A DNA stretch of 64,000 nucleotides. Source: an uncultured Planctomycetia bacterium. GTDB lineage: Bacteria; Omnitrophota; Gorgyraeia; 2-02-FULL-51-18. The stretch lies in NCBI GenBank assembly GCA_964606485.1, contig CAZSGP010000001.1, positions 353,085 to 417,084 of the forward strand, in the 5' to 3' direction. The notes under the pieces are model-generated. The model was not told the origin of the DNA. It did not search any database and saw nothing but the letters and a program-made list of their open reading frames with translations. How positions within the stretch are numbered: position 1 is the first letter of the stretch; each line of letters begins with the position of its first letter. Of the stretch, positions 8,836 through 53,357 are shown piece after piece. Position numbers and translations under genes: made by a program.

Positions 8836-9470
8836 TGGCGTTGCCAATTAAAGAGCTGATCATTGGTTTTGTGAACACCAAAAAAACCGCTTTGATAAAC
8901 GTTATCAGCAACAGACCAGACAAAGAAAAGCAATTGATTGTGATTGTTTTCCTGGCGGCGTTTTTAGCGATCGATTACTTTTTGCTGGTGAAGCCATGCA
9001 TTGATTATTTGTACAAGAATACTCCGGAAATTGCCTCTCTGAAAAGTCGTTTGGATGAAATGCGGCAGGATCAGAAAAATAAAGCGCTGATTGAAAAAAA
9101 TTGGAAAGACACCGCATTGGAGTTAGAAACACGAGAGAAAATGTTTATCTCGCCGAACGAGATTCCGGCGTTAATCGAAAATCTTTCCAAGACAGCTTCG
9201 GATTCCCGCGTAAAAATTTTATCGCTCCAGCCGGTAGAAGCGGCGCGCAAAGAGGATAAAAAGGATTCGAAAGACGAGCATCTGCCGATTCCGATTAAAA
9301 TAGACGGCTTAGCCGGAGCCCATGAACTCGGGAGTTTTTTGGCGAGACTCGAATCAGGCGAGACGTTTATCCGCATTACGGATATGAGAATTAACTCCAA
9401 TCCTCAGGATTCGCACCGCCATTTAATTGGATTGGATATTGAGGCGTATAAAAAGGCGGGCACGTCATGA
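8835..9470 (+). CDS. pilO: Type IV pilus assembly protein PilO
   Basis: Bitopic membrane protein with a coiled coil and a periplasmic domain, at the PilO position in the operon. Stop/start overlap with pilN. Confidence 0.6.
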   Translation: MALPIKELIIGFVNTKKTALINVISNRPDKEKQLIVIVFLAAFLAIDYFLLVKPCIDYLYKNTPEIASLKSRLDEMRQDQKNKALIEKNWKDTALELETREKMFISPNEIPALIENLSKTASDSRVKILSLQPVEAARKEDKKDSKDEHLPIPIKIDGLAGAHELGSFLARLESGETFIRITDMRINSNPQDSHRHLIGLDIEAYKKAGTS

Positions 9471-9871
9471 CGAGGCGTACCTTTTTATGGATTCTTTTGG
9501 TTTCATTTGATATGATTTTTTTGGTTCCAAGCGCTCTTGCCGATAAAGCAGGGTACGACCCAGGCGGGCGCCGCGACCCTTTTGTTCCGCTTGTAACATT
9601 GACCACCAAAGAATCGACGGGGCTGATGGGTGTGGAGAGTCTGGAAGATCTCCATTTGGAAGGGGTAGTTTTTGACCCCAAAAATGGCTCCATGGTTGTC
9701 GCCAATAATGTGGTTCTAAAAGAGGGTGAAACCAACGGTCCGGTCAAAGTTTTAAAAATTAAGGCCGACGGGGCTTATTTCTCTATCAATGGGATCGAGG
9801 GTTTTAAGCCCTCTTATGAAGAGAAGCCGCAGGGCAGTTCTAAAAGTAGTTCAAAAAAGGAGCGTAAGTGA
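9467..9871 (+). CDS. pilP: Type IV pilus assembly lipoprotein PilP-like
   Basis: Small protein with a signal peptide, at the PilP position. Overlapping start/stop codons with both neighbours. Confidence 0.5.
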   Translation: MTRRTFLWILLVSFDMIFLVPSALADKAGYDPGGRRDPFVPLVTLTTKESTGLMGVESLEDLHLEGVVFDPKNGSMVVANNVVLKEGETNGPVKVLKIKADGAYFSINGIEGFKPSYEEKPQGSSKSSSKKERK

Positions 9872-11412
9872 AGCAATTTAGAATTGCCGCAAGTGCTTGC
9901 TTGAGCGTTCTCTTCCTTCTCCAGCCTAGTTTTTTAGCCTATTCCGCCGATAGCGAATCCCAAGAGCAAAGCGCCGCAATTTCTTCTGAAAATCCCTCTC
10001 CGGCGGAGTCGCAAGTTCCTTTGAGCACAGAGCCTATCTCTCCAGAATCTTCAGAGAGCGAAAGAACTGAGGATGCAAGCGCTTCGGAATCGTCAGCGCC
10101 TGAAGTTTCGGCAACCGGCAATGTCACCGTTGATTTTAAAGATGCAGACATTCAAAATGTACTGCGAATCATTTCTTTCAAAAGCGGTGTGAACATTGTT
10201 GCCGGAAGTGATGTGACGGGACAAGTGACGATTCGCCTGGTGGACGTCCCGTGGGAAAAAGCGTTGGATGTGGTGCTAAAGACGTATGGATTTGCCTACG
10301 AGAAAGATGGAAACATTATCCGTGTCACCACACTCGACTCCCTCAAAAAGGGAGATTTGTCGACCGAGGTTTATACGCTCAATTACGCAACGGCTTCTGA
10401 AGTCGTGGCCGCGCTGAAGGATATTTTAAGCGAACGCGGTAAAGCGCAAGCCGATACGCGGTCGAACTCTGTGGTGGTGACCGATATGCCAACGGTTCTC
10501 GCGCAAACAAAGAAAGTCATTGAGCGCTTGGACAAGGGCCCGGCTCAGGTGATGATTAATTCAAAGATTATTGAAACCACTTTGGGTTCTGCGGATCGTT
10601 TGGGGATTCGATGGGGCACGCAGGTAACGCTGGGAGGCTCTCGCCGTCCGACTTCGTTTCCATTTCCAGCCACTCAAAGAACGGCGATCCGACGCTTCTT
10701 ACCGCCAGGTCAACAGAGTTTGGAGGTTACCGATGGAGCGGGCGGAACGGCGGATAACGCCATATTTCCAGCCGGTGGTGCTGCTGAAAATATTCAGCCT
10801 ACTTTTCCGCTGACCGGTGCAGACCAGTTTACGTTTGGAACGCTTGATTTTACGCAGTTTCAGGCGGTTTTAGAAGCGATTCAAACCCGTGATAATTCAA
10901 AGATTCTTTCGGAGCCGCATGTGATTGTGATGAATAATCAGGAGGCTAGAGTGACGGTGGGTGACACGATTGCCATCCCAAACTTCGAACGCAACTCAAC
11001 CACGGGACGAATGGAAATTACAGGATACAGAGATCGCGCGGTGGGCATTACGCTGATCGTGACGCCGCAGATCAACAGCGCCAACGAGATTGTTTTAACC
11101 ATCAATCCGTCGGTGACAACGCTTTTAGGTTATGACACGCTGGCAACAGACATCGTGGCCCCTCACTTTACCAATCGAGAGGCGAAGACTCAGATTCGAA
11201 TTAAGGACGGCGAAACCGTCGCTATTGGAGGATTGATTAAAGACAATACCACTACTGCAGTTACAAAAGTTCCGATTTTAGGGGATCTACCCATTGCGGG
11301 GAAGCTTTTTAAGTTTAAAAATAAGACCGGTGATAAAACCGATCTTTTATTTTTTATGACCGTGCATATTCTCACGGACAAACAAGCTGCTCCGCAAGGG
11401 CATAAAATGTGA
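9868..11412 (+). CDS. pilQ: Type IV pilus secretin PilQ
   Basis: Signal peptide, a Ser/Glu-rich low-complexity linker and N0-like domains. Secretin C-domain reads PILGDLPIAGKLFKFKNKTGDKTDLLFFMTVHIL. GTG start. Confidence 0.85.
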   Translation: MKQFRIAASACLSVLFLLQPSFLAYSADSESQEQSAAISSENPSPAESQVPLSTEPISPESSESERTEDASASESSAPEVSATGNVTVDFKDADIQNVLRIISFKSGVNIVAGSDVTGQVTIRLVDVPWEKALDVVLKTYGFAYEKDGNIIRVTTLDSLKKGDLSTEVYTLNYATASEVVAALKDILSERGKAQADTRSNSVVVTDMPTVLAQTKKVIERLDKGPAQVMINSKIIETTLGSADRLGIRWGTQVTLGGSRRPTSFPFPATQRTAIRRFLPPGQQSLEVTDGAGGTADNAIFPAGGAAENIQPTFPLTGADQFTFGTLDFTQFQAVLEAIQTRDNSKILSEPHVIVMNNQEARVTVGDTIAIPNFERNSTTGRMEITGYRDRAVGITLIVTPQINSANEIVLTINPSVTTLLGYDTLATDIVAPHFTNREAKTQIRIKDGETVAIGGLIKDNTTTAVTKVPILGDLPIAGKLFKFKNKTGDKTDLLFFMTVHILTDKQAAPQGHKM

Positions 11413-11458
11413 TTTTCGCGGCTGCGACTCTATTTTCGCAGCTGATTTGAAATTTTAA

Positions 11459-11502
11459 ACACATCAACTCCGTAATCGGGTGACGTTGATGTGTTTTTTT
11501 TA
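11459..11502 (+). terminator. Rho-independent terminator after pilQ
   Basis: ACACATCAAC and GTTGATGTGT form a perfect 10 bp stem around a 16 nt loop, followed by T8. Confidence 0.65.
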
Positions 11503-11520
11503 TTTTCAGGAGAAAAAGAA

Positions 11521-13080
11521 ATGTCTAGAAAAGAAATTTTAGTGAATGTTGAGTTTCAAGAAAAAAAAGTTTGTGTGATCGAAGACGGTCACTTGGAAGA
11601 GTATTACGTCGAGCGCCACAGTGACCGGCAACTCGTCGGCTCCATTTTTAAAGGCAAGGTCAGTTCAATTGTACCGGGAATTGGTGCGGCGTTTATTGAT
11701 TTGGGACTAGAAAAGAACGGCTTTTTGTATGTTTCCGACGTGGTGGGGCAGGGTGTACTTGACTCCGAAGAAGAGGTTTACGTCGAGAATGCCGAAAAGC
11801 AGGAAGAAAAATTAGAGCGTCGTCCGGGTCGCCGGGATAAGAACGAGCCGATGGTCCAGATTCAGGATGTCTTAAAGAAGGATCAAGAAGTTCTGGTTCA
11901 GGTCGTGAAGGAGCCGTTTGGCACGAAGGGCGCGCGTCTGACTTGTCAGGTCTCCTTAGCGGGGCGTTTCGTGGTGTTTATGCCGCATCACCCGCATGTG
12001 GGAATTTCTAAGCGCATTGACGACCGCAAAGAGCGCGAGCGCATTCGCCAGATCATTAAAAGTGTGGATCTGCCGAAGGACTCCGGCCTCATTGTCCGCA
12101 CGGCGGCGTGGGGTTGTGACGCGAAGGTGCTCGAGCGAGACATTAAGTTTTTGGTGCATCAGTGGAGAGTGATCCAACGCCGCTGCACGCTTAAAAAGGC
12201 ACCGGATATCGTTCATGAAGAATACGGACTTGTACTCCGCATGGTGCGCGACGTGCTCACCGAAAATTTTGAACGCATCGTCATCAACGATAAAGACGAG
12301 TTTAAGAATGTAGATCGTTTTATGCGGGCCGCAGTCCCCAATTTACGCCCGAAGCTTGCTCATTACTCCGGAGATGTTCCAATCTTTTTGGCACATGGCG
12401 TTCAAAAAGACATTGACCGGATTTATGAGCCTAAAGCGAGTTTAAAGAGTGGCGGACATATCGTCATTGACCAGACGGAAGCGCTGGTTGCCATCGACGT
12501 GAACACCGGGAAATTCACCGGAACGCGCAATCTCGAAGAGACGGCGTTTCGCACCAATTGCGAAGCCGCGCGTGAAATTGCTAAGCAAATTCGGTTGAGA
12601 GACTTGGGTGGAATCATCATCATTGATTTCATCGACATGGATTTGTCGGAACATCGTCGTTCGGTTTTAAGAATTTTAGAAGACTCGCTCCGCAAGGATC
12701 GCGCTAAAACAAGTGTGCTCAACTTGTCGCAACTTGGCTTAGTCGAAATGACGCGTCAACGCATGCGTAAGAGCTTGGAAGGCGCCTCCACTCAGAACTG
12801 CCCGTATTGTCAGGGCAAGGGTGTTGTGAAGTCCAAGGAAACAGTTGCGAGCGAAGCGCTTCACAAGGTCACGGCGTTTTTAAAGAATATGAAAAAAGAG
12901 CATGTCGAAGTGACGGTGACTCCTGAAGTCATTGAAGTTTTGACGCGCGAAAATAGCAAGATGATCCGCGGGATTGAAACGCAGTCCCAGAACCGGATTA
13001 GCCTCGTCGCGGATCCGCATTTGCATGTGGAAGAAGTCCGGATTAAGAGGTTGCTTGACAAGCGAAAAAAGCTATGGTAG
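11521..13080 (+). CDS. rng: Ribonuclease G/E family endoribonuclease (Rne/Rng)
   Basis: N-terminus MSRKEILVNVEFQEKKVCVIEDGHLEEYYVE and S1 domain FKGKVSSIVPGIGAAFIDLG. DNase-I-like catalytic region, Zn-link CPYCQGKG. The ATG at 11521 is preceded by GGAGAAAAAG. The track ORF start at 11491 lies inside the terminator. Confidence 0.85.
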   Translation: MSRKEILVNVEFQEKKVCVIEDGHLEEYYVERHSDRQLVGSIFKGKVSSIVPGIGAAFIDLGLEKNGFLYVSDVVGQGVLDSEEEVYVENAEKQEEKLERRPGRRDKNEPMVQIQDVLKKDQEVLVQVVKEPFGTKGARLTCQVSLAGRFVVFMPHHPHVGISKRIDDRKERERIRQIIKSVDLPKDSGLIVRTAAWGCDAKVLERDIKFLVHQWRVIQRRCTLKKAPDIVHEEYGLVLRMVRDVLTENFERIVINDKDEFKNVDRFMRAAVPNLRPKLAHYSGDVPIFLAHGVQKDIDRIYEPKASLKSGGHIVIDQTEALVAIDVNTGKFTGTRNLEETAFRTNCEAAREIAKQIRLRDLGGIIIIDFIDMDLSEHRRSVLRILEDSLRKDRAKTSVLNLSQLGLVEMTRQRMRKSLEGASTQNCPYCQGKGVVKSKETVASEALHKVTAFLKNMKKEHVEVTVTPEVIEVLTRENSKMIRGIETQSQNRISLVADPHLHVEEVRIKRLLDKRKKLW

Positions 13081-26073: not shown

Positions 26074-26735
26074 TGTTTAAGAGCGTTCAAAAAACTCTCA
26101 CCAACGCTGGAATTGTTTTTGTTCTGGTTCTCATTTTCGCTTTTGGCGTCAAATTTTTTCAAGAATTTCTCACCTTTCGTAAAATTATCCATAATTTAAA
26201 GGCCGAATCCCGCATTGCCGAAGTGCTGGTCACCGAATCCAGCATCGACGAGTACACGCGCAAGTACACGACGACGATTAAATTTTTGGAATACGACGTG
26301 AAGGGCAAGCCGATGAAGGCGAAATACTTTACCTTTAAAGGCAATTTGATTCAGTTTCAGACGCTGGTGGTGCGATTTGATGACAAATACATCGAGCAAG
26401 GCAATCGCATGAAAGGAAAGAGCATCTACCTCTTTTTGAAGGCATTCGTGCTGGACGGCAAGGACACGCAGGAATTCGAAATTACGCCGACGGCGGAAGT
26501 CCCGGGTGGGTACAAAACTTCAGAGACACCGTCGCGCTTCGAAAAAGAAATTTGGCAAAAATTCTGGAAGGTGGCGCTGGATCCTGACCAGCGCAAGCAA
26601 GTGGGCATTAAAAACGCGCAGATTGAAGCGCCGGGCTCTGTGTTTGTGCCGGGCACGATTTACACGCTGATCATCGAGCATGATGGGGGAATTCGGATTG
26701 ATACGAGGCCGATTCCGGAGATATTGAAGAACTAA
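26073..26735 (+). CDS. Hypothetical protein with N-terminal TM anchor
   Basis: ATGA overlap with the upstream gene. One N-terminal TM helix, then a ~190 aa soluble domain with no recognised motif. Confidence 0.4.
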
Positions 26736-26740
26736 AATCA

Positions 26741-26830
26741 CCCCTCCGTCCGCTGAGGCGGACACCTCCCCTTAGTAAGGGGAGGAAATTTCCCCTCCTT
26801 ACCAAGGAGGGGTGGGCACGAAGTGCCGGG
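26741..26830 (+). repeat. Array of four consecutive GC-rich hairpins (GTCCGC-TGAG-GCGGAC; CTCCCCTT-AGT-AAGGGGAG; CCCCTCC-TTACCAA-GGAGGGG; GGCAC-GAA-GTGCC) between hypothetical gene and uvrA
   Basis: Four perfect short palindromes within 90 nt. The CCCCTCC / GGAGGGG tracts also occur in other terminator hairpins in this window. Confidence 0.5.
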
Positions 26831-38887: not shown

Positions 38888-40201
38888 ATGAGTCAAGCGC
38901 ACCCCAAAAGTTTTAATGGTTTAGGCATTAGCCCCGAAATCCTAACCGTGCTGGAAAGTCTCAAATTTGAAGTTCCGACACCCGTGCAGGTGAAGGCGAT
39001 TCCTGTAGCAAATGAAGGAAAAGACGTGCTGGGCATTGCGCAAACCGGCACGGGGAAGACGCTGGCGTTTGGCGTTCCCATGATTCAACGCCTTCGCACC
39101 GAATCTGGCCGCGCGCTGATCTTAGTCCCCACCCGCGAATTGGCCCTTCAAGTGGATGCGACCATTCGGAAATTAGGCAACCCCTTCGACATCCGTTCCG
39201 TGATTGTGATCGGCGGCATGGACATGGCCACACAGGTGAAGCTTCTTAAAAAAGAAACGATCCGTGTGATTATTGCGACGCCTGGCCGGCTTCTGGATCA
39301 TTTCGAACAAAAAACGTTGAACGCAGAAGATCTTAAAATGGTGGTTCTCGACGAAGCAGACCGCATGCTCGACATGGGTTTTGCGCCGCAAGTTGAGCGC
39401 TTGGCCAAATTTTTACCCAAAAATCGTCAGACTTTATTTTTTTCCGCGACCATGCCTGAGGCCGTGGTAACGCTCGCAGCTTTGTATATGACAGCACCCG
39501 TGACAGTGGAAGTGGCCCCCTCGGGCGCGGCCCCTGAAAAAATTGTGCAGGAGCTTTATATTATTCCAATGGAGTCAAAGCTCGAGCTATTGTCTAAAAT
39601 TTTATCTAAAACCCGCGGAAGCGTGCTTATTTTTACGCGCACCAAGGCCAATGCGTGGAAGCTTGCTGAAGCGCTGAGACAAATGAAGTTTACCGCCAAT
39701 GAGCTTCACTCGGACCGCACCCAAGGCCAAAGGCGTCATGCGCTGAACGGTTTTAAAACGGGCGTTTACAAGGTGCTCGTTGCCACCGACATAGCCGCGC
39801 GCGGCATCGACGTGAAGGGGATAGAGCTCGTGGTGAATTTTGATTTGCCGGATGAGACCGAAAACTATGTGCATCGCATTGGTCGCACCGGCCGCGCGGG
39901 ACTTGCGGGTCACGCCATCACGTTTGCCATGCCCAACGAAAGCGGAGACATTCGCGCGATTGAAAAATTAATGAAGACCGCTTTGAAAGTGGTCCATCAC
40001 CCGGCCGTTCCATCCGCAGAATTCGACGAAACCCTGCGGCGCTCCAAGCGCAAACACGTTTACGAAGACGAAGAGCGCCACAAAGACGGTCGACCCCAGT
40101 TTAGAGGCTCGACTCAACTCAAACAGTTTATTGAACGCAAAGCGCAAAGAGAGAAACATGCCGAAGGCGATATTCATCCGCCACGCGGAAAGCGTCGCTA
40201 A
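38888..40201 (+). CDS. DEAD-box ATP-dependent RNA helicase
   Basis: Q-motif, AQTGTGKT, PTRELA, DEAD, SAT, ARGID and HRIGRTGR motifs. Confidence 0.9.
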   Translation: MSQAHPKSFNGLGISPEILTVLESLKFEVPTPVQVKAIPVANEGKDVLGIAQTGTGKTLAFGVPMIQRLRTESGRALILVPTRELALQVDATIRKLGNPFDIRSVIVIGGMDMATQVKLLKKETIRVIIATPGRLLDHFEQKTLNAEDLKMVVLDEADRMLDMGFAPQVERLAKFLPKNRQTLFFSATMPEAVVTLAALYMTAPVTVEVAPSGAAPEKIVQELYIIPMESKLELLSKILSKTRGSVLIFTRTKANAWKLAEALRQMKFTANELHSDRTQGQRRHALNGFKTGVYKVLVATDIAARGIDVKGIELVVNFDLPDETENYVHRIGRTGRAGLAGHAITFAMPNESGDIRAIEKLMKTALKVVHHPAVPSAEFDETLRRSKRKHVYEDEERHKDGRPQFRGSTQLKQFIERKAQREKHAEGDIHPPRGKRR

Positions 40202-42655: not shown

Positions 42656-43666
42656 GTGATTTCCGCCGCCCAAAAAAATATAAAAGATATTCTTTCGTTA
42701 TCTGTAAAACATTCCGATTTTCAATCGGCGGTTATCGTGTCCGATGCGCAGTGTGAGCTCTCAAAAATTCTAAGCCGCGCCTACCGGGACTGCTTGCCCT
42801 CAGCGCAATTTGTGGATTTTGATTCCACGTCGCCCAGCGAGGTGCTCGCCACGTTTAAACGCTTAAAGCCGTCCGATCTTGTGGTGCTCATTCAGTCGTC
42901 TAATTTTCGCTTAGAGGCTTTTCGTTTGCGCGTGGAGCTCTTTAACCAGTCGCTCAAAGTCATTGAGCACGTGCATTTAGCCAAAATGAAAGACACGGAG
43001 CTCGAAATTTACATCGATTCGCTGGCGTATGACCCGGATTATTTTTGCGGAGTAGGGGAAGCGCTTAAAAAGCGGATGGACCGCGCCACGCGGACCGAAA
43101 TTAAAAGTGGTGATGAGTGTTTGGTGGTTGAAGGGATGCTCGAATCCGCAAAACTCAACACCGGCAACTACTCTCAGATGAAAAATGTGGGCGGGCAGTT
43201 TCCGATCGGCGAAGTTTTTTCGGAAGCGCAGGATTTAACCCGAGTGAATGGTTGCGCGCAAATTTTTGCATTTGGGGATGCGGAATTTAAAGTCAACAAA
43301 CCCAAAACACCCATCACGCTTGTGATTGAAAGTGGGAAAGTGGTAGATGTTCGAAATTCGACTCCGGAATTTGACCGCGTGCTTGCCACGATTCGCGCTG
43401 ACGAGGGGGATGTCTGGGTGAGAGAGCTTGGATTTGGATTAAATCGCGCGTTTACGAAAGAGCGTACGGTGATCGACATCGGAGCGTACGAGCGCATGTG
43501 CGGCGTGCATTTGTCGCTCGGCGTCAAACACACCGTTTACAAAAAGCCTGCATTCACCCGAAGCATGGCCAAGCATCATGTTGATGTGTTTATAGACACT
43601 ACGCAAGTTTTGCTGGGTGGTGAGAGCGTCTACCACGGTGGAAAGTGGATGATTGGTCGGAGCTGA
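42656..43666 (+). CDS. Hypothetical protein, possible M29 (aminopeptidase T/PepS)-like fold
   Basis: Weak resemblance to the M29 N-terminal region. C-terminal HLSLG resembles the M29 HIALG block. 336 aa is shorter than typical M29 proteins. GTG start. Confidence 0.3.
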   Translation: MISAAQKNIKDILSLSVKHSDFQSAVIVSDAQCELSKILSRAYRDCLPSAQFVDFDSTSPSEVLATFKRLKPSDLVVLIQSSNFRLEAFRLRVELFNQSLKVIEHVHLAKMKDTELEIYIDSLAYDPDYFCGVGEALKKRMDRATRTEIKSGDECLVVEGMLESAKLNTGNYSQMKNVGGQFPIGEVFSEAQDLTRVNGCAQIFAFGDAEFKVNKPKTPITLVIESGKVVDVRNSTPEFDRVLATIRADEGDVWVRELGFGLNRAFTKERTVIDIGAYERMCGVHLSLGVKHTVYKKPAFTRSMAKHHVDVFIDTTQVLLGGESVYHGGKWMIGRS

Positions 43667-43706
43667 GGGGTGTAGTGAACCGAATACCCCTCAGCGCCGA
43701 TTGAAT
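43656..43706 (+). repeat. Hairpin repeat element, copy A (GTCGGAGCTGAGGGGTG-TAGTGAACCGAATACCCCTCAGCGCCGATTGAAT)
   Basis: Near-identical to the sequence at 46783-46843 apart from a 10 nt insertion in copy B. Forms a GAGGGG/CCCCTC hairpin. Overlaps the last codons of the upstream gene. Confidence 0.55.
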
Positions 43707-43719
43707 TAAATCTAAGGAG

Positions 43720-43749
43720 TTGACAAACTAAACGATCGTTCAGTATAGT
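43720..43749 (+). promoter_or_regulatory. Sigma70-type promoter (TTGACA-18-TATAGT) of lexA with embedded palindromic LexA-box candidate AACGATCGTTC (GAAC-N4-GTTC class) at 43731-43741
   Basis: A perfect 10 bp palindrome AACGATCGTT lies between the -35 and -10 hexamers. This matches the Cheo-box type consensus CGAAC-N4-GTTCG with one flank mismatch. Confidence 0.5.
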
Positions 43750-43770
43750 ATGTCCAGAGGGAGAGTCCCA

Positions 43771-44352
43771 ATGGCAAAAACGATTGAGTGGTCGAAGGCC
43801 GTCGCAAAGTTAAGAGAGTTTTACCGCGCGCAGAAGCGCCCGCCGAGTTTCCAGGAAATAGCCGAACTTTTTTCTTACAAATCCAAAAACGCCGCGTTTG
43901 AACTGGTCGAAAAATTAATCGAAAAAGGATTTCTAAAAAAGGATTCCAAGGGAAAAATTCTTTTTGATTCGCTTCTGGGTGTGAAGCTCTTGGGAAGCGT
44001 GCAGGCGGGGTGGCCCAGTCCCGCCGAAGAAGAGCTTGTCGACACGATGAGTTTGGATGAATACCTCATCAAGCACCCCGAGCAAACTTTTCTCGTGAAA
44101 GTGTCGGGCGACTCAATGATTGACGCGGGCATTCACGAAGGGGACTTGGTGCTGGTTGAGCGCGGCCGCCAAGCCAAGCACCGGGACATCGTGATCGCTC
44201 AGGTCGACAACGAGTGGACGATGAAATATTACGAAAGAGTCGGCTCGGCTGTTCGGCTTGTAGCTGCCAATAAAAAATATCCGCCCATTGCTCCCAAACA
44301 AGAACTGAATATCGGCGGCGTTGTCGTCGCTGTGATCCGGAGGTACAAATAA
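43771..44352 (+). CDS. lexA: LexA repressor (S24 peptidase)
   Basis: N-terminal wHTH, cleavage-site region VQAG, and catalytic Ser/Lys contexts GDSMIDAGI and ...KYYER. RBS GAGGGAGAG before the ATG at 43771. Confidence 0.9.
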   Translation: MAKTIEWSKAVAKLREFYRAQKRPPSFQEIAELFSYKSKNAAFELVEKLIEKGFLKKDSKGKILFDSLLGVKLLGSVQAGWPSPAEEELVDTMSLDEYLIKHPEQTFLVKVSGDSMIDAGIHEGDLVLVERGRQAKHRDIVIAQVDNEWTMKYYERVGSAVRLVAANKKYPPIAPKQELNIGGVVVAVIRRYK

Positions 44353-45656
44353 TGACGCTCAACTTGCATTCGCTTCCAAAGGCCATTGTTCACATCGACT
44401 GCGATTCTTTTTTTGCGAGTGTCGAGCAGTCGCTTGACCCCAAGTTAAAAGGAAAGCCCGTGATTGTCGGAAAAGACCGCGGGATTGCGGCCGCATTTAG
44501 CATTGAGGCTAAGCGCTGTGGGGTGACGCGCGCCATGCCGCTTTATGAAATTAAAAAATTGTGTCCGGACGCGGTATTTTTGCCGTGCGATTACGAAACG
44601 TACAGTTTGGTGTCCAAACGTTTTTACGGAATTCTGCGGCGCTTTACGCCGGATGTGGAGGAGTACTCCATCGACGAAGCATTTGCCGATCTCACGGGTT
44701 TGCGGCGCGTGTATCACGGTTCGTACGAGTCGATTGCACTAGAAATGAAAAAGACGGTCGAAAAGGAACTTGGGATCACCGTCTCGGCAGGTTTAAGTCT
44801 CACCAAATCGATTGCAAAAATCTGCTCCAAAGACAACAAGCCCTCCGGCTTTACCTGTGTAAAAGGGTATGAGCTTCACGAGTATTTGAAAAGCGTTGCG
44901 GTCGAGCGCGTCTGCGGATTTGGACCAGCGAGCACCGCACTTCTGAATAAGCATGGTGTCGCGACGGTGTGGGACTACATTCAAAAGCCTGAACTGTTTG
45001 CGCAAAGCTTGCTTGGAAAAATTGGCGTCGAGCTCTGGCATGAATTAAAAGGTGATTCGGTTTACCCGGTGTCGATTGAGAAAAAAGAAGCGCAAGCGAC
45101 GCTTAGCAAAACTAAAACCTTTACACCGGCGTCGAGCGACCGTGAGGTGGTGCGTGCTCAGCTTATTCGCAACATGGAGTCGGCGTTTATCAAGTTGCGC
45201 CGCCACGGACTGCGCACCAAAGCGATCGGGGCGTATTTAAAAAATAATGATCACCGCGGCAAAGGGCTTTTTGCAGAGCTTGAGCGCCACACCGATTCAC
45301 CGCTTGAGGGGATTAAAATTGTATCGGGACTTTTCGACCGCTTGTTTGAACCGAATGTGCGCTACCGCGCAACCGGCGTGTGGTTTGAAGATTTGGAAGG
45401 CGGCATCGAAATGCAGAGAGATTTATTTGAAGACCCGGTGCGCGTGAAAGGCATGAAGGAAATTTCCAAAACGATTGATGAAGCCGGTGAGATGTACGGC
45501 AAGCACGCGCTTCATTTAGGGGCGAGTGATCTTTTGCGCGAGCATCGCCAGCACTTGGGCGAGCGGGGAGATTTTTCTACGCGCAAGCTCAATCCCCTAA
45601 AAGGCGAAAATTTTCGCCAGCATCTGGGCATTCCGTTGTGGGATGTTAAAGTGTAA
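44352..45656 (+). CDS. Y-family translesion DNA polymerase (DinB/UmuC-like)
   Basis: IVHIDCDSFFASVE at the N-terminus and SIDEAFADLTG. Length 434 aa. Start overlaps the lexA stop (ATAATGA). Confidence 0.85.
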   Translation: MTLNLHSLPKAIVHIDCDSFFASVEQSLDPKLKGKPVIVGKDRGIAAAFSIEAKRCGVTRAMPLYEIKKLCPDAVFLPCDYETYSLVSKRFYGILRRFTPDVEEYSIDEAFADLTGLRRVYHGSYESIALEMKKTVEKELGITVSAGLSLTKSIAKICSKDNKPSGFTCVKGYELHEYLKSVAVERVCGFGPASTALLNKHGVATVWDYIQKPELFAQSLLGKIGVELWHELKGDSVYPVSIEKKEAQATLSKTKTFTPASSDREVVRAQLIRNMESAFIKLRRHGLRTKAIGAYLKNNDHRGKGLFAELERHTDSPLEGIKIVSGLFDRLFEPNVRYRATGVWFEDLEGGIEMQRDLFEDPVRVKGMKEISKTIDEAGEMYGKHALHLGASDLLREHRQHLGERGDFSTRKLNPLKGENFRQHLGIPLWDVKV

Positions 45657-45667
45657 GATACTGCCTC

Positions 45668-46585
45668 ATGAGACATTTTAATCCAAGACACGACCGGCAT
45701 GAGCGTCCGCGTCAGCGCGACGAGGCGGAGAGTCGGTTTCTAGCCGGTATCGCCGTCGACCCATCTCCGAGAATTCGCCTAGAAGACGGCTCTAAAGAAT
45801 TCACCACGCGCGCCATAGATCTCATTTGTCCCATCGGAATGGGGCAGAGGGGTTTGATTGTGGCACCTCCCGGTTCCGGTAAAACGACTTTCTTGAAACA
45901 CATTTGTCAGGCCGTATCGAAATCTCAGCCTGCGATAAAACTTTACTGCCTGCTCGTTGACGAGCGCCCCGAAGAGGTGACTGATTTTAAACGAAGTGTT
46001 CCCGCAACGCTTTATTGGTCCTCCTCCGATGAAAGTTATGAAAATCATATCCGCGTGGCAGACGAATTGATGCGCCAAGCGATTCGCGAGGCGGGCAATG
46101 GTGAAAACGTGATGGTGGTGATTGATTCGCTCACACGTCTCTCGCGCGTGCACAATGCCGAACGTGGCTCGAGTGGACGGACCCTTTCAGGCGGAGTAGA
46201 TGCGCGAGCGCTCGAAGTACCGCGACGAATTTTTGGCATGGCGCGCAAAATTGAAAATGCCGGCTCACTCACGATTCTTGCCACAATCTTAGTCGACACC
46301 GGAAGCCGCATGGACCAAGTCATCTTTGAAGAGTTTAAAGGCACCGGCAATATGGAAATTGTTCTAAGCCGCGAAATCTCCGGGCACCGCATTTACCCGG
46401 CAATTGATATTTCTAAAAGCATGACGCGACGTGAGGAATTATTGGCCACCGGTCCCGAACTCGGCAACATGCGCAAACTCCGCCGCGAACTGGTGAAGCT
46501 CGGCAGTGTCGAAGCCGCCAAAACGCTCGTGTCTCTCCTCGAAAAATTTCCCACAAACACCGAACTTCTCGCGGCTCAGCGTTAA
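45668..46585 (+). CDS. rho: Rho termination factor homolog consisting only of the C-terminal RecA-type ATPase domain (no N-terminal RNA-binding/OB domain)
   Basis: Walker A LIVAPPGSGKTT, LLVDERPEEVTD, Q-loop-like LVDTGSRMDQVIFEEFKGTGNMEIVL, and PAIDISKSMTRREELL. The ORF is closed 18 nt upstream of the ATG by an in-frame TAA, so no NTD can be encoded here. Confidence 0.8.
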   Translation: MRHFNPRHDRHERPRQRDEAESRFLAGIAVDPSPRIRLEDGSKEFTTRAIDLICPIGMGQRGLIVAPPGSGKTTFLKHICQAVSKSQPAIKLYCLLVDERPEEVTDFKRSVPATLYWSSSDESYENHIRVADELMRQAIREAGNGENVMVVIDSLTRLSRVHNAERGSSGRTLSGGVDARALEVPRRIFGMARKIENAGSLTILATILVDTGSRMDQVIFEEFKGTGNMEIVLSREISGHRIYPAIDISKSMTRREELLATGPELGNMRKLRRELVKLGSVEAAKTLVSLLEKFPTNTELLAAQR

Positions 46586-46762
46586 GCGGAAGCCAGTCAA
46601 AAAAGCTTCCTCGCTCCAGGTCCCCCGCCTTCGGCGGGCCACGCCTATTCCGATGTTAGATGAGTTTTTTGGTGAATTATCATGCGAATAAAATCCAAAA
46701 CGTTTGGGTTCTGTGGTCGGCGCATGCCTTTCGCTCCGGAAACTTTTTTGACTGGCTTCCGC
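46586..46762. mobile_element. MITE-like 177 bp element with perfect 20 bp terminal inverted repeats (GCGGAAGCCAGTCAAAAAAG / CTTTTTTGACTGGCTTCCGC)
   Basis: TIRs at 46586-46605 and 46743-46762. The interior is non-coding. It carries a CCCGCC-TTCG-GCGGG tetraloop hairpin right after the rho-like stop, and the TCGCTCC motif repeats directly inside both ends. Confidence 0.45.
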
Positions 46763-46782
46763 TTCTTTGTGTTTGCCGGGCT

Positions 46783-46843
46783 AGTCGGAGTTGAGGGGTG
46801 TTCGCAGGCGTAGTGAACCGAATACCCCTCAACGCCGACTGGA
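46783..46843 (+). repeat. Hairpin repeat element, copy B (same family as 43656-43706, with 10 nt loop insertion)
   Basis: GTCGGAGTTGAGGGGTG-TTCGCAGGCG-TAGTGAACCGAATACCCCTCAACGCCGACTGGAT. Same orientation as copy A. Confidence 0.55.
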
Positions 46844-46853
46844 TGACGCGTTA

Positions 46854-49079
46854 CTAGTGCCGTGTTTCTTTAATTCGAAGCGTGAGGCCGATGCGCTTGC
46901 GGGGGAGATCAATCGTTAAAACTTTAACGGTGACAATTTGCCCAGTCTTAACAACGGCATGCGGATCTCGCACGTAGTCGTTCGCGAGTTCTGAAATGTG
47001 AACGAGTCCATCCTGGTGAACGCCAATGTCCACAAACGCACCGAAGTTAGCGACGTTGGTGATCGTGCCTTCCAGAATCATGCCGGGTTTTAAGTGTTCC
47101 ATTTCAGTGATTTTAGAATTCAGCACCGCCGCTTTAAACTCAGGGCGCGGGTCGCGTCCTGGTTTTTCGAGTTCTTCTAAAATGTCGGAAACCGTAGGCA
47201 CGCCAAATTTTTCGTCGGCGTATTCCTCGGGTTTTAAATTTTGCAAGATTTCTGATTTGCCTAGAAGCGTTTTAAGGTCGAGCGACTGACGCTCCAAAAT
47301 TTTATGCACGACTGGGTACGACTCGGGGTGAACGGCGGACGCATCCAGCGGATTGTCACCGTTTGGAATTCTTAAAAAACCCGCCGCTTGCTCAAATGTG
47401 CGCGGACCAAATTCGAATATTTTCTTAAAATCTTCACGCGATCTAAACGCACCGTTTTCGTTGCGGTACAAAACCATTTTATCGGCCACGCGGCGCGTGA
47501 GGCCGGCGACGTAAGACAAAAGAGAAGGGGACGCGGTGTTCACATCGACGCCGACGGCATTTACGCAGTCTTCGACCACGTTGTGAAGCATTTTACCGAG
47601 ACGAATTTGATTCACGTCGTGTTGATATTGACCCACACCAATGGACTTGGGATCGATTTTCACGAGTTCCGCGAGCGGGTCTTGCAGGCGCCGCGCAATA
47701 GAAACCGCGCCACGCAAAGTAACATCGAGCGTTGGCAGTTCACTCGAGGCCAGTTCCGACGCCGAATACACCGACGCCCCCGCCTCAGACACCACAATTT
47801 TTTGAATCTTAGAATCCGGCAATAATTTTATAAGATCGACGGCCAGTTTGTCGGTTTCGCGTGACGCGGTGCCGTTTCCGATGGCGACAAGTTCGATGGA
47901 GTGTTTTTGAGCGAGCTCTTTTAATTTTCGAAGCGCGCCATTCCAGTCGTCGCCCGGTGGGTGAGGGTAAATCGTGGCGCACTCGAGCACTTTTCCGGTT
48001 TTGTCGACACAAGCGACTTTGACGCCGGTGCGAAAGCCAGGGTCAAGACCCATCGTGGCGCGGCTACCGCCGGGTGCTGCCAAGAGAAGGCTTTTTAAGT
48101 TTTGAGCGAACACGCGAATCGCTTCCTCTTCCGCGTTCTTTTTGAGCCGCAAGATCAAATCAATTTCAAGGCCGGCGCGAATTTTGTATTTCCAGGCAAA
48201 CTTCACTGCTTCCAAGAGCCACGGGTCTCGCAGTGACCGAGCCAAGCGCACGTTAAATTTTTTAAGAATTTCAAAAATGTATTCTTCGTCTTCGGTTTTT
48301 TTATCGGTGTAGCCCACAAGGCCGGTTGTCTCCATTCGAACCGATAAAACACCTTCCGCGCGCCCGCGCAAGATCGCGAGAATCCGGTGAGAGGGGAGTT
48401 TCGCAAGCGCTTCACGGAAATCAAAATAATCTAAAAATTTCTGAGCGTCAGCGACCTGCATTTTATCTTTTGCGGAAACCTTGGAGTAAAGATAACCTTC
48501 GCGCCAGAATTTTTCACGCAAGAAACTCACGAGCTCCGGATTTTCAGAAAAAGTTTCCGCCAAAATGTCCCGCGCGCCGTTTAGTGCTTGCTCAAGCGAG
48601 GCAATGCCTTTAATTTCGGAAACGTATTTCAAGCCTTCTGCTGAGGGGTCCGTAGCGGAGTCGTTTAAAATTTTGAGAGCAAGGGGTTCGAGTCCAGCGG
48701 CGCGAGCGGCTTCGGCCCGGGAATTTTTTTTAGGTTTAAATGGTAAGTAGAGATCTTCGAGTTCGGCTTTGGTTTGTGCTTTTTCAATCGCATCTTTCAC
48801 GGCGGGGGTTAATTTTCCCTGCTCTTGAATCGAGTCTAAAATAGATTTACGTCTCGATTCCAGTTCTCGCAAATACTCCAACCGATCGGCCAGTGCGCGC
48901 AAATGAGTGTCCGTTAGCCCGCCTGTAACCTCTTTGCGGTAGCGCGCAATGAAAGGAACGGTGGCGCCGCCATCCAAAAGACGGATCGCCGCCCAGATTT
49001 GATGAGGTTTCACCGCCAGTTCTTTGGCGATGGTTTGTTCTATGGGCAAAGAGCCCGCTTCGACGACGGTGGAATTCAT
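46854..49079 (-). CDS. tex: Transcription accessory protein Tex (YqgF/RNase H-like, HhH, S1 domains)
   Basis: N-terminal ...VPFIARYRKEVTGGL, YqgF domain, HhH motifs and a C-terminal S1 domain. 741 aa. Confidence 0.9.
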   Translation of the reverse strand: MNSTVVEAGSLPIEQTIAKELAVKPHQIWAAIRLLDGGATVPFIARYRKEVTGGLTDTHLRALADRLEYLRELESRRKSILDSIQEQGKLTPAVKDAIEKAQTKAELEDLYLPFKPKKNSRAEAARAAGLEPLALKILNDSATDPSAEGLKYVSEIKGIASLEQALNGARDILAETFSENPELVSFLREKFWREGYLYSKVSAKDKMQVADAQKFLDYFDFREALAKLPSHRILAILRGRAEGVLSVRMETTGLVGYTDKKTEDEEYIFEILKKFNVRLARSLRDPWLLEAVKFAWKYKIRAGLEIDLILRLKKNAEEEAIRVFAQNLKSLLLAAPGGSRATMGLDPGFRTGVKVACVDKTGKVLECATIYPHPPGDDWNGALRKLKELAQKHSIELVAIGNGTASRETDKLAVDLIKLLPDSKIQKIVVSEAGASVYSASELASSELPTLDVTLRGAVSIARRLQDPLAELVKIDPKSIGVGQYQHDVNQIRLGKMLHNVVEDCVNAVGVDVNTASPSLLSYVAGLTRRVADKMVLYRNENGAFRSREDFKKIFEFGPRTFEQAAGFLRIPNGDNPLDASAVHPESYPVVHKILERQSLDLKTLLGKSEILQNLKPEEYADEKFGVPTVSDILEELEKPGRDPRPEFKAAVLNSKITEMEHLKPGMILEGTITNVANFGAFVDIGVHQDGLVHISELANDYVRDPHAVVKTGQIVTVKVLTIDLPRKRIGLTLRIKETRH

Positions 49080-49131: not shown

Positions 49132-50490
49132 ATGACAAATGAAAATCAAACCGCGACGTTTTACGGCTTGGGAATCGCGCCAAGCATTTTAGAATTGTTA
49201 GACAAAATGAAGTACAGTGTTCCAACACCGATCCAGCAAAAAGCCATTCCGATTGGCCTGGAAGGAAAAGACGTGCTCGGAATCGCCCAAACGGGAACCG
49301 GGAAAACACTCGCCTTCGGAATTCCCATTATTCAACGCCTTCTGCAGAACCCGGGCCGCGCACTGATTTTGGTGCCCACTCGTGAACTCGCCGTGCAAGT
49401 TGATGAAACTTTGAGAAAATTAGGACAGCCTTACAACATCCGCACCGTGATTTTGATCGGCGGCATGAATATGTCCATGCAGGTTCAGCAATTGAAGAAA
49501 TCTTTCACGCGCGTGCTTATTGCAACGCCTGGACGTTTTTTAGATCATCTTCAGCAGCGCACGGTGAATCCGGCGGATCTGAAGACCGTGGTGCTCGACG
49601 AAGCGGATCGCATGCTCGACATGGGTTTTGCGCCGCAGATCTCAAAGATTGCCAAGTTTCTGCCCAAGGATCGTCAGACTTTATTCTTCTCGGCGACGAT
49701 GCCGGAATCCATTTTAAAAATTGCGTCCGAATACATGAAACTTCCGATCCGCATTGAAATCGCGCGACCGGGAACCACAGCGGACAAAATTACGCAGGAG
49801 CTTTTCATTGTCCGTCAGGGCATGAAGCAAATGCTGCTTGGAAAATTACTGGAGCAGTACCGCGGCAGCGTGCTCGTATTTGCACGCACGAAAATTAATG
49901 CCCGTAAAATTACTCAACATTTGCGTCAGACGGGGCATACGGCGAATGAAATTCACGCCAACCGTTCGCTCGGTCAGCGCCGTGAAGCGCTCGAAGGTTT
50001 TAAAACCGGGCGCTACCGCGTACTGGTCGCCACCGACATTGCCGCACGCGGCATTGACGTGAAGGGGATCGAGCTTGTCATTAATTACGATTTGCCGGAC
50101 GACATTGAAAATTATGTTCACCGTATCGGCCGCACCGGCCGCGCGGGACACTCCGGTCACGCGATTGCTTTGGCAACGCCGGATCAGGGGGCCAATGTTC
50201 GCGATATCGAAAAAATGATTCGCGGATCGCTTAAAGTTTCTATTCACCCGGCCGTTCCTCCGGAGAAATTTTCAGGAGCTTCGACGCCGTTTCGTCCTCA
50301 GCAGCAGCGGCATTCGAGCCAACATCGCCGGCCGCATGGCGGCGGACAGCACTCCCGTCCTTACGGGGGTGGTGGGAATTCGAGACCCTACGGCGGCGGC
50401 AATTCGCGCGGTGGAAATTCTCAAGGCGGCCAGTCACAAGGCGGTCATTCCAGTGGCGGACAAAGACCAAGAAATAGTTTCTACGACTAA
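49132..50490 (+). CDS. DEAD-box ATP-dependent RNA helicase (paralog of 38888-40201) with Gly/Arg/Ser-rich C-terminal tail
   Basis: All DEAD-box motifs are present and collinear with the first helicase. The tail reads GGGNSRPYGGGNSRGGNSQGGQSQGG. Confidence 0.9.
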   Translation: MTNENQTATFYGLGIAPSILELLDKMKYSVPTPIQQKAIPIGLEGKDVLGIAQTGTGKTLAFGIPIIQRLLQNPGRALILVPTRELAVQVDETLRKLGQPYNIRTVILIGGMNMSMQVQQLKKSFTRVLIATPGRFLDHLQQRTVNPADLKTVVLDEADRMLDMGFAPQISKIAKFLPKDRQTLFFSATMPESILKIASEYMKLPIRIEIARPGTTADKITQELFIVRQGMKQMLLGKLLEQYRGSVLVFARTKINARKITQHLRQTGHTANEIHANRSLGQRREALEGFKTGRYRVLVATDIAARGIDVKGIELVINYDLPDDIENYVHRIGRTGRAGHSGHAIALATPDQGANVRDIEKMIRGSLKVSIHPAVPPEKFSGASTPFRPQQQRHSSQHRRPHGGGQHSRPYGGGGNSRPYGGGNSRGGNSQGGQSQGGHSSGGQRPRNSFYD

Positions 50491-51043
50491 GCGTTGTTCT
50501 TGGTGCGGGGACGACCCGCTGTACGTGGCTTACCACGACACCGAGTGGGGAGTGCCCATTCACGATGACCGCAAACTCTTTGAATTCATCATCCTCGAGG
50601 GTGCTCAAGCAGGTTTAAGCTGGCTCACGGTTTTAAGAAAACGCGAAAACTACCGCAAGGCGTTTGATCAATTTGACGCTAAAAAAATTGCAAAGTACGA
50701 CGCCAAAAAAGTCCGCGAACTGTTAAACAATCCCGGAATTATCCGAAATCGTCTTAAAATTTCAGCGACCATCGACAACGCAAAAGCGTTTCTTAAAATT
50801 CAAAAAGAATTCGGTAGTTTCGACAAATATCTCTGGCGGTTTGTTGCGCATAAGCCTAAGCCCAACAAAATTAAAACCCTAAAAGACATTCCAGCGAAGA
50901 CGGCTGAGTCCGACGCCATGAGCATAGACTTAAAAAAACGCGGCTTCCGTTTTGTGGGTTCGACGATTTGCTACGCTCACATGCAGGCGACCGGGATGGT
51001 GAATGATCACTTTGTAGATTGTTTTCGGCGAGACGCCATCTAA
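50453..51043 (+). CDS. tag: DNA-3-methyladenine glycosylase I
   Basis: KRCSWCGDDPLYVAYHDTEWGVPIHDDRKLFEFIILEGAQAGLSW matches Tag. Start uncertain; an in-frame GTG was chosen so the product is ~196 aa. The first in-frame ATG, the alternative start, is at 50336 inside the helicase tail. Confidence 0.75.
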   Translation: MADKDQEIVSTTKRCSWCGDDPLYVAYHDTEWGVPIHDDRKLFEFIILEGAQAGLSWLTVLRKRENYRKAFDQFDAKKIAKYDAKKVRELLNNPGIIRNRLKISATIDNAKAFLKIQKEFGSFDKYLWRFVAHKPKPNKIKTLKDIPAKTAESDAMSIDLKKRGFRFVGSTICYAHMQATGMVNDHFVDCFRRDAI

Positions 51044-53135: not shown

Positions 53136-53173
53136 GCAGGACGGCATTCTTCTCAAGAGAATGCCGTCCTTTT
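53136..53173 (+). terminator. Rho-independent terminator
   Basis: GGACGGCATTC ... GAATGCCGTCC stem followed by TTTTT. Confidence 0.65.
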
Positions 53174-53357
53174 TACTGATATAATCTACGCATGAACACC
53201 CGCCCAATGCCCTCTGTTTTTGTGTCTGATTTTGGACCTTTTCTAGCCGTAGAAAATGACGGGTACATCAGCATCCGCTACGGCAACGGTTTAATGAAAA
53301 TTATTGTTTTTGGAGAGTCGTAGACGGGATGCAATTTTTGAGAACAATAAAATAGCT

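Follow-up and report, generated by a model that had tools for sequence, protein, structure and literature searches.

The attC sites of integrons are hairpins bordered by two inverse core sites, RYYYAAC (R'') and GTTRRRY (R'), and attC sites lying less than 4 kb apart without a nearby integrase form CALIN clusters in the definitions of IntegronFinder. Classical REP families run to hundreds of copies, and unrelated terminators normally have no sequence in common. REP (repetitive extragenic palindromic) elements are species-specific hairpins of 21-65 nt at gene ends, which make mRNA more stable, act as transcription terminators and influence translation (PMC6006769; PMC3116915). They are recognised by a guide tetranucleotide (GTAG or GTGG) located 0-2 nt upstream of the foot of the hairpin and by a fully paired basal stem of 7-20 nt, followed by a loop of 2-5 nt or by a second stem after a bulge of 1-3 nt (PMC6006769). 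Elements of the IS200/IS605 type carry a subterminal hairpin of 20-25 nt at either end, with both hairpins on one strand (PMC6006769). A further likeness concerns the genes between the repeats described here and not the repeats themselves: in LexA-regulated translesion cassettes (umuDC, lexA2-imuA-imuB-dnaE2 and the streptococcal hdiR-umuC), as at this locus, translation of a Y-family polymerase is coupled to that of an S24 LexA-type repressor, and the promoter has a LexA box.

Two hairpin copies around lexA, polY and a short Rho

A preliminary description of this Omnitrophota locus proposed that direct repeats surround lexA, a Y-family polymerase gene and an N-terminally short Rho, together with a MITE-like element, which is the 181-bp element with inverted arms of Table 1. 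Both the orientation and the contents were borne out in the window (the whole 64-kb stretch of DNA analysed), with copies A and B on the + strand (Table 1); the earlier placement stood for copy A and was off by one for copy B.

Table 1. Features at and around the paired hairpin repeats, with positions in the window.
Feature	Position	Strand	Remarks
Aminopeptidase-like gene (AmP)	42656-43666	+	336 aa; no Pfam match
Hairpin repeat copy A	43656-43706	+	51 nt; covariance model 82.7 bits on +, 31.8 on -
lexA promoter	43720-43749	+	TTGACA-18-TATAGT, near-consensus
Cheo-type LexA box AAAC-GATC-GTTC	43730-43741	+	in lexA promoter spacer
lexA	43771-44352	+	193 aa from ATG 43771; above NCBIfam lexA equivalog cutoff
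Y-family (Pol IV-like) DNA polymerase, polY	44352-45656	+	start overlaps lexA stop
Short Rho	45668-46585	+	305 aa; aligns only to E. coli Rho residues 141-412
181-bp element, 27-nt inverted arms	46584-46764	.	arms 96% complementary
Hairpin repeat copy B	46784-46844	+	61 nt; covariance model 98.2 bits on +, 32.5 on -
Tex	46854-49079	-	741 aa; convergent with lexA-polY-rho; 3' end abuts copy B
tag (adenine glycosylase)	50453-51043	+	separated from polY here by short Rho, the inverted-arm element, copy B, Tex and DEAD2

The copies differ by four substitutions and one 10-nt indel; the ten extra nucleotides already reported for copy B (TTCGCAGGCG, equivalently GTTCGCAGGC) were found again, and their effect is to lengthen its stem. 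The longest perfect identity between the copies is 21 nt, and the window contains the 21-mer TAGTGAACCGAATACCCCTCA exactly twice, against an expectation of zero from shuffles. Folding of both copies, also claimed earlier, was reproduced with minimum free energies of -32.5 kcal/mol for A and -41.5 kcal/mol for B (z-scores of -7.5 and -6.6; 0 of 200 shuffles were equally stable). In each hairpin the basal stem has 5 bp and is separated by a 1x1 A.G mismatch from an upper stem of 12 bp (A) or 15 bp (B), which carries a loop of 10-14 nt; both the mismatch and a 14-nt loop segment (TAGTGAACCGAATA) are the same in A and B. All 15 modelled pairs form in either copy, and the pair changes between them comprise one two-sided compensatory change (C-G to U-A) and one change from GU to GC, although covariation statistics have no power with two sequences (the observed value is also attained in 243 of 500 shuffles). 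The repeat is biased toward one strand, with 83-98 bits on the + strand vs 32 on the - strand under the covariance model, and folding is better on the + strand by 7-8 kcal/mol. The comparison shows that A and B derive from a common origin and that their hairpin has been kept through compensatory change. Moreover, a Logan assembly made independently from this sample contains both copies identically, so they are not an assembly artefact.

By exact, BLAST and covariance-model searches, A and B are the sole copies in about 71 kb (the window and a 7-kb extension). They lie 3.1 kb apart, and the probability that two random positions in 71 kb fall within that distance is roughly 0.09. The covariance model (R1), run with filters off, detected diverged copies neither in the window and its extension nor in 28 related loci, and exact scans with a 19-nt core gave 0 matches in genome, metagenome and viral contig collections (the species representatives searched do not include the source genome). 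Partial matches at 9616, 30264 and 21915 are coding and have no 3' arm, and were set aside as chance. Because it is without a match in these collections and in the 28 related loci, the repeat is, as judged from sequence searches, species-specific. No Rfam family reached its gathering threshold for the repeats or for the 181-bp element, where the only permissive match, to Moco-II (E = 4.9), was taken as noise. Repeats do not bracket lexA-polY units in general: bracketing was seen at only one other lexA-polY locus, from a related organism, where a generic intergenic repeat family fills every intergenic gap.

Gene ends and gene order at the two junctions

That copy A overlaps the stop codon of the upstream gene, as first described, holds on closer reading, with the TGA (43664-43666) located within its 5' arm. 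Homologues of the aminopeptidase-like gene terminate in W-x-V/I and then a stop, whereas here the last three codons (G-R-S) and the TGA come from the 5' arm of copy A; judged from these homologues, copy A has replaced the native stop codon. Copy B starts 198 nt after the stop of the short Rho gene and ends 9 nt from the Tex stop codon on the - strand. Such positions, on a stop codon and 9 nt from one, are typical of inserted gene-end palindromes.

The genes between the copies have separate histories of linkage. lexA and polY form a conserved two-gene operon that regulates itself and is native to Omnitrophota: its promoter and LexA box are conserved in all lexA-polY relatives, with homology ending just upstream of the -35 element, which lies 14 nt downstream of copy A. 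Despite this conserved promoter and operator, no hairpin was found upstream of lexA in the 13 relatives inspected. Unlike the LexA-regulated translesion cassettes named above, the pair is vertically inherited in Omnitrophota, has tag downstream in the closest relative and gives no sign of mobility. The short Rho, which is without the N-terminal RNA-binding domain, is a stand-alone gene in relatives; lexA-polY is followed by it at 0 of 20 related loci, and it is preceded by lexA-polY at 0 of 7. The 181-bp element, whose first bases fall within the native stop codon of Rho, is single-copy and had no homologue at any related locus fetched.

In the closest relative, L163 (81% identity in PolY), the same neighbourhood of Tex, aminopeptidase-like gene, lexA-polY and tag occurs in a different order and without such hairpins, with tag directly 3' of polY. 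Gene order in this neighbourhood is shuffled among lineages, and the linkage of Rho to the DEAD2 helicase is the same as in another relative, L003. The bracketed genes are native neighbours, locally shuffled. Copies A and B are located at two junctions that differ from L163, AmP|lexA and rho|Tex; the preliminary description had foreseen neither this placement at changes of gene order nor the supply of a stop codon by copy A.

Likeness to REP elements and a putative role at RNA 3' ends

The preliminary description had also offered REP-type elements as an alternative, which stands in the broad sense of a species-specific, gene-end hairpin repeat; the canonical REP hallmarks are missing, and there are two copies in 71 kb. 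Like REP elements, the palindromic units mobilised by RAYT (TnpA-REP), A and B have lengths within 21-65 nt, are imperfect palindromes able to form ssDNA or RNA hairpins, are species-specific and oriented, occur at gene 3' ends near stop codons, and vary slightly between copies in sequence and length. Unlike REP elements, they have no GTAG or GTGG tag at the hairpin foot: GTAG occurs only within the loop, and the 5' flanks read ATTG (A) and GCTA (B) on the + strand and TCAA and CCAG on the other. Their loop of 10-14 nt is longer than the 2-5 nt of REP elements, and their basal stem has 5 bp instead of 7-20. Among the genes of the window, no RAYT (Y1 HUH) was seen. Overall, A and B have the appearance of ordinary gene-end palindromes specific to one species, not of the borders of a mobile SOS cassette. 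We favour, with moderate confidence and from sequence evidence, the reading that they are two copies of a low-copy, lineage-specific, oriented REP-like palindrome, installed at gene 3' ends as putative RNA 3'-end hairpins. As it stands, the finding adds one species-specific palindromic repeat in the poorly studied Omnitrophota and matters little; should the repeat belong to a larger family, or should pairs occur around other gene blocks, no earlier REP-like system would have been described in Omnitrophota, and the interest would grow.

At the RNA level, A and B would form 3'-end stem-loops on two successive + strand transcripts. Copy A would form the end of the ABC-F/aminopeptidase-like operon, immediately ahead of the LexA-controlled promoter; copy B would form that of lexA-polY-rho, while also capping the Tex transcript that converges on it. 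The stem-loops may protect these 3' ends, or may stop read-through even though no U-tract follows. Like intrinsic (Rho-independent) terminators, A and B are GC-rich stem-loops directly after stops and between convergent genes. Unlike them, neither has a U-tract after the stem in either orientation (tails UUGAAUUA and UGGAUGAC on the + strand, CUAGCCCG on the - strand), so that any role as terminators is putative; a terminator scan of the window did not call A or B, and canonical terminators with a stem and T-run are present in the same window at 11457-11504 and 53138-53175. The locus offers a natural test case of whether hairpins without a U-tract shield an error-prone polymerase operon under LexA control from read-through that starts upstream.

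The REP-like palindromes may have marked or mediated local rearrangement, their arrival having perhaps accompanied the reordering of the neighbourhood, either by filling new junctions or by serving as short homology for the event. In this respect A and B have modest value as a recent local rearrangement marker. In principle, direct repeats with this 3.1-kb spacing could also allow lexA-polY-rho to be amplified or lost.

Other explanations of the pair

A possible but doubtful explanation is that one local event made the direct repeats, with a block of native genes translocated by recombination between pre-existing hairpins, or with a terminator hairpin co-duplicated with the moved block; the family would then be just the A/B pair, and would have no function beyond that of the original hairpin. 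This agrees with the location of both copies exactly at junctions that differ from L163, with there being only two copies, close together, in 71 kb, and with a neighbourhood demonstrably shuffled among lineages; moreover, removal of the DNA between A and B would leave a tidy convergent pair (the AmP stop, one hairpin, 9 nt and the Tex stop). However, AmP is directly convergent with Tex in no relative, the retained Rho-DEAD2 linkage implies that the block between the copies was not transplanted as a single piece, and a perfect identity of 21 nt is short for homologous recombination. The relatives, at 62-81% amino acid identity, are too distant for the event to be reconstructed, and reconstruction of an empty site via Tex, the aminopeptidase-like gene and the short Rho met with synteny too scrambled at 62-82% identity.

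It is improbable that A and B are paired protein-binding sites, or a shared cis-regulatory RNA motif that coordinates the adjoining genes, with their similarity due to selection and not to common insertion. The identical loop segment, the conserved A.G mismatch and the short distance from copy A to the lexA -35 element are what such sites might display, but the motif is missing upstream of lexA in 13 of 13 relatives in which promoter and operator are conserved, copy B lies at gene 3' ends away from promoters, and there is no Rfam match. Similarly, a LexA box within the hairpin was sought and is absent, the loop having no GAAC-N4-GTTC.

The preliminary description had suggested, as one of two readings, that A and B might be att-like direct repeats bounding a mobile or acquired SOS cassette. 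This tempting reading is corrected here: the three genes are not conserved as a unit and all are native to Omnitrophota, and the shift in codon usage that had been suggested as a check is absent, with GC, GC3 and codon usage like those of the flanks, so that a compositional or codon-usage island was rejected. A positive GC skew spans 42750-45750, with boundaries matching neither A nor B. No integrase, tyrosine recombinase, transposase or HUH enzyme was found among the genes of the 64-kb window, and its sole tRNA (Ala) is 9 kb away. An integrative element with att direct repeats is not supported, given the lack of a recombinase in the window, the typical composition and genes native to the phylum. 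A dif/Xer-type site was rejected: A and B do not resemble one, and there is no skew switch. The arms of A and B can be read as the TIRs of a MITE, but no shared TSD flanks A and B, and two copies are known.

A mobile module without its own recombinase, in which same-strand hairpins serve as ends for a hairpin-specific enzyme acting in trans (an IS200/IS605-type Y1/HUH transposase, a RAYT or an integron-type integrase) that excises and inserts lexA-polY-rho, is highly improbable. Direct, same-strand, asymmetric hairpins with a conserved internal mismatch at both borders do have the geometry of IS200/IS605 LE and RE and of attC arrays (PMC6006769). As in IS200/IS605 elements and their non-autonomous derivatives, the two similar imperfect hairpins lie at the segment borders with neither inverted terminal repeats nor a target-site duplication, and copy A was inserted over a stop codon; as in CALIN, same-orientation hairpin sites with unpaired stem bases lie less than 4 kb apart with no nearby integrase. 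If true, native SOS genes and even rho would be relocated within the Omnitrophota chromosome in units bounded by hairpins, and the intense local shuffling of the neighbourhood would be explained. However, tnpA, tnpB and intI are absent inside the segment and across 64 kb, the hairpins of 51-61 nt are more than twice as long as the 20-25 nt of IS ends, and there is no evidence of a conserved target tetranucleotide or of further copies. Neither strand has AAC...GTT inverse core sites at the hairpin foot, as read directly from the sequence. The segment encodes only LexA, the Pol IV-like polymerase and Rho, a cargo of native housekeeping and SOS genes that includes a probably essential rho; in contrast to integron cassettes, it is a unit of three genes with its own conserved, near-consensus promoter in a region of core chromosome. 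Finally, the hairpin is at no other lexA-polY locus and the composition is unshifted.

Sequence, fold and copy number of the hairpin pair

The preliminary description reported two direct copies, A and B, of a hairpin repeat on either side of lexA, polY (a Y-family polymerase) and a short Rho gene (sRho), and this is borne out. The 21-mer TAGTGAACCGAATACCCCTCA, common to A and B, occurs exactly twice in the 64 kb and in none of 100 shuffles, the copies align with four substitutions and one 10-nt indel, both fold stably (A, -32.5 kcal/mol, z -7.5; B, -41.5 kcal/mol, z -6.6), and both recur identically in a Logan assembly made independently from the same sample. The coordinates first given hold for A and were one base off for B, and the 10 extra nucleotides of B, originally placed in the loop, make its stem longer. 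All pairs common to A and B form in each copy (15/15); one pair is altered on both sides (C-G to U-A), GU becomes GC at one position, and an A.G mismatch is kept in both. Pairing is preserved by two of the four substitutions, a count from n=2 sequences for which statistics are formally powerless. A covariance model of the pair scores 83-98 bits on the plus strand vs ~32 on the minus strand, and the RNA fold is better by 7-8 kcal/mol on the plus strand, so the element is oriented.

No third copy turned up in the window, whether the search was exact, mismatch-tolerant, BLAST-short or structure-aware, nor is there one in a 7-kb extension to its left (98-kb contig, same sample). Partial matches at 9616, 30264 and 21915 were rejected as further copies, being coding and lacking a partner arm. 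The pair is the sole non-coding dispersed repeat of the window, the remaining repeat families being coding paralogues. Exact matches to its 19-nt core are missing from 185,579 species-representative genomes (the source genome not among these), from the JGI metagenomes and from IMG/VR; a repeat search in relatives had also been suggested, and the covariance model found nothing in 28 related loci.

Features of the repeat region in the window and, in the last row, of a lexA-polY locus from a different organism
Feature	Position	Strand	Remark
ABC-F gene			upstream of copy A, together with AmP
AmP (aminopeptidase-like)	42656-43666		upstream of lexA-polY-rho
Hairpin repeat copy A	43656-43706	+	hairpin-forming direct repeat
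lexA promoter TTGACA-18-TATAGT	43720-43749		near-consensus, 3' of copy A
lexA	43771-44352		above NCBIfam lexA equivalog cutoff; starts at ATG 43771, not 43750
polY (Pol IV-like Y-family polymerase)	44352-45656		translationally coupled to lexA
Short Rho, 305 aa	45668-46585		starts 11 nt after polY; above Rho equivalog cutoff
IR element, 181 bp	46584-46764		27-nt inverted arms; between Rho and copy B
Hairpin repeat copy B	46784-46844	+	hairpin-forming direct repeat
Tex	46854-49079		convergent, beyond copy B
Repeat clusters of locus L101	7100-7430, 9293-9560, 10690-10950

The bracketed genes in Omnitrophota

The source organism is a Candidatus Omnitrophota MAG and the window, with its genes for pilus and secretin, RNase E/G, L21/L27, obg, argS, mfd, surA, pdxA, ksgA, dnaG and rpoD, belongs to the core chromosome. 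Neither an integrase nor a transposase nor a HUH enzyme is encoded in it, and the single tRNA of the window lies at a distance of 9 kb. The compositional shift proposed as a mark of acquisition is absent, GC, GC3 and codon usage of lexA, polY and rho all being typical for the window.

Conservation of the lexA-polY pair extends to about 20 metagenomic loci (52-80% identity), none of which has Rho after polY. All of these Omnitrophota-like loci conserve the promoter with a Cheo-type LexA box (GAAC-N4-GTTC) between -35 and -10; the window's own box, AAAC-GATC-GTTC, sits in the same spacer. Similarity among the loci (L087-L103 and L163, the closest relative) ends just upstream of -35, and in no relative inspected does a hairpin precede the lexA promoter. 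The hairpin is therefore not conserved in the SOS regulation of the phylum and not required for the operon. Named PolY homologues are all from Omnitrophota, and PolY and Tex of MAG Bin_62 are 60% and 61% identical to those of the window, as vertical descent would predict.

Short Rho covers only positions 132-411 of the NCBIfam Rho equivalog profile, aligns to E. coli Rho residues 141-412, and has a short Arg/Pro-rich tail in place of the entire N-terminal primary RNA-binding domain; it scores under the cutoff of the NCBIfam 'Rho, short form' paralogue model. Hundreds of homologues of 290-335 aa (70-82% identity), annotated as Rho, occur across Omnitrophota, and a full-text literature search found no paper on an Omnitrophota Rho termination factor. 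In seven related loci sRho neighbors other genes (FKBP, PNPOx, pseudouridine synthase, L-PSP), and lexA-polY precedes it in 0/7.

Several relatives show peculiarities of their own. Every intergenic gap of the L101 lexA-polY locus carries repeat clusters of about 26-105 nt (GTCCGGGAC...GGTGTTCGGATGAC), which are a dense REP/BIME-like family. In L098 the final 86 nt of polY (9217-9302) recur 1,169 bp downstream (10386-10471, 93% identity), which suggests insertion into, or duplication at, that end. L092 (8001-9676) and L093 (7904-9579) have the reversed order, with polY ahead of an S24-only gene; this gene corresponds to LexA residues 76-200, lacks the DNA-binding domain and resembles UmuD.

Gene-end junctions and origin of the repeats

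AmP homologues all end in W-x-V/I followed by the stop, and in the window AmP the 5' arm of copy A supplies an additional G-R-S and the TGA. The overlap of A with this stop codon, noted in the preliminary description, is thus confirmed, and the native stop has been overwritten by the repeat or by the junction it marks. The Tex stop lies 9 nt from the end of copy B. The IR element, an inverted-arm element, starts inside the native Rho stop codon and leaves the protein unaltered; its terminal arms are 96% complementary and it contains a CCCGCC-UUCG-GGCGGG hairpin. It occurs once in the window, matches no Rfam family and has no homologue among the loci retrieved; it may be the remnant of a MITE, or else an sRNA or 3'UTR structure.

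Synteny with L163 (GCA_031379345.1; PolY 81%, LexA 75%, Tex 67%, AmP 62% and Tag 55% identical to those of the window) is partial: the neighborhood genes are kept, but in another order, without sRho between polY and tag (adenine glycosylase) and without a comparable hairpin at any junction. Its order is Tex(-) - GSDH - AmP - pseudouridine synthase - hydrolase - lexA - polY - tag, vs AmP - A - lexA - polY - sRho - IR - B - Tex(-) - DEAD2 - tag in the window. The polY stop of L163 overlaps the start of tag (3-methyladenine glycosylase I), forming a lexA-polY-tag damage operon (9414-11871), and its AmP stop overlaps the next gene; the window tag (50453-51043) lies 4.8 kb downstream of polY (lexA-polY, 43771-45656) and overlaps the DEAD2 helicase gene at its end. 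Other lineages hold partial linkages (Tex close to tag in L007, sRho close to DEAD2 in L003, sRho adjoining FKBP in L002 and pseudouridine synthase in L006), and this scatter indicates that the region consists of native genes shuffled locally. Two DEAD-box helicase paralogues (38888-40201 and 49132-50490; same orientation, exactly 10,247 nt apart, about 71-78% nucleotide identity over roughly 1 kb) flank the whole repeat region.

A and B agree with REP elements (PMC6006769, PMC3116915) in being palindromic, of fitting size, species-specific and located at gene ends, but they depart from them in the 5' GT[AG]G tag and in stem and loop geometry. REPs have a high copy number; the count for A/B is two in the window and 7-kb extension. 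We place them, as a new member with low copy number, among the palindromic repeats in the broad sense that are species-specific and sit at gene ends, and do not class them as canonical REPs. REP-type elements flanking the genes by chance is the better of the two readings first offered, to which we add that both copies mark junctions of local rearrangement, and we lean slightly towards an origin as a dispersed repeat family. That the pair is instead a rearrangement scar draws on the position of A (AmP/lexA) and B (rho/Tex) at junctions that both differ from L163, and we consider it unlikely. The other initial reading, a mobile SOS cassette, is not supported: lexA-polY and sRho never adjoin in the relatives inspected and are native genes of typical composition in a window without a recombinase. 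The native genes, their composition and the lack of a recombinase also contradict att sites of an integrative element. A hairpin-bounded mobile module is highly improbable: the same-strand hairpin geometry is that of IS200/IS605 ends, but neither tnpA nor tnpB is present and A and B exceed the length of such ends, and unlike attC sites A and B have no inverse core sites and bracket a unit that is not cassette-like.

A possible role at RNA 3' ends

A and B rank among the most stable gene-end structures of the window. Neither has a U-tract in either orientation or was called by the terminator scan; canonical intrinsic terminators (stem and T-run) occur elsewhere, at 11457-11504 and 53138-53175. 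From their plus-strand bias and their position after two successive plus-strand transcription units, we infer that A and B may act as RNA 3'-end hairpins of these units, where they would protect transcripts or impede read-through. Enterobacterial REP elements have such effects (PMC6006769). The most structured gene end of the window (-35 kcal/mol) is at 26740-26825, where three successive GC-rich hairpins (CCGTCCGC...GCGGAC, CCTCCCCTTAGTAAGGGGAGG, CCCCTCCTTACCAAGGAGG) follow a gene ending at 26735.
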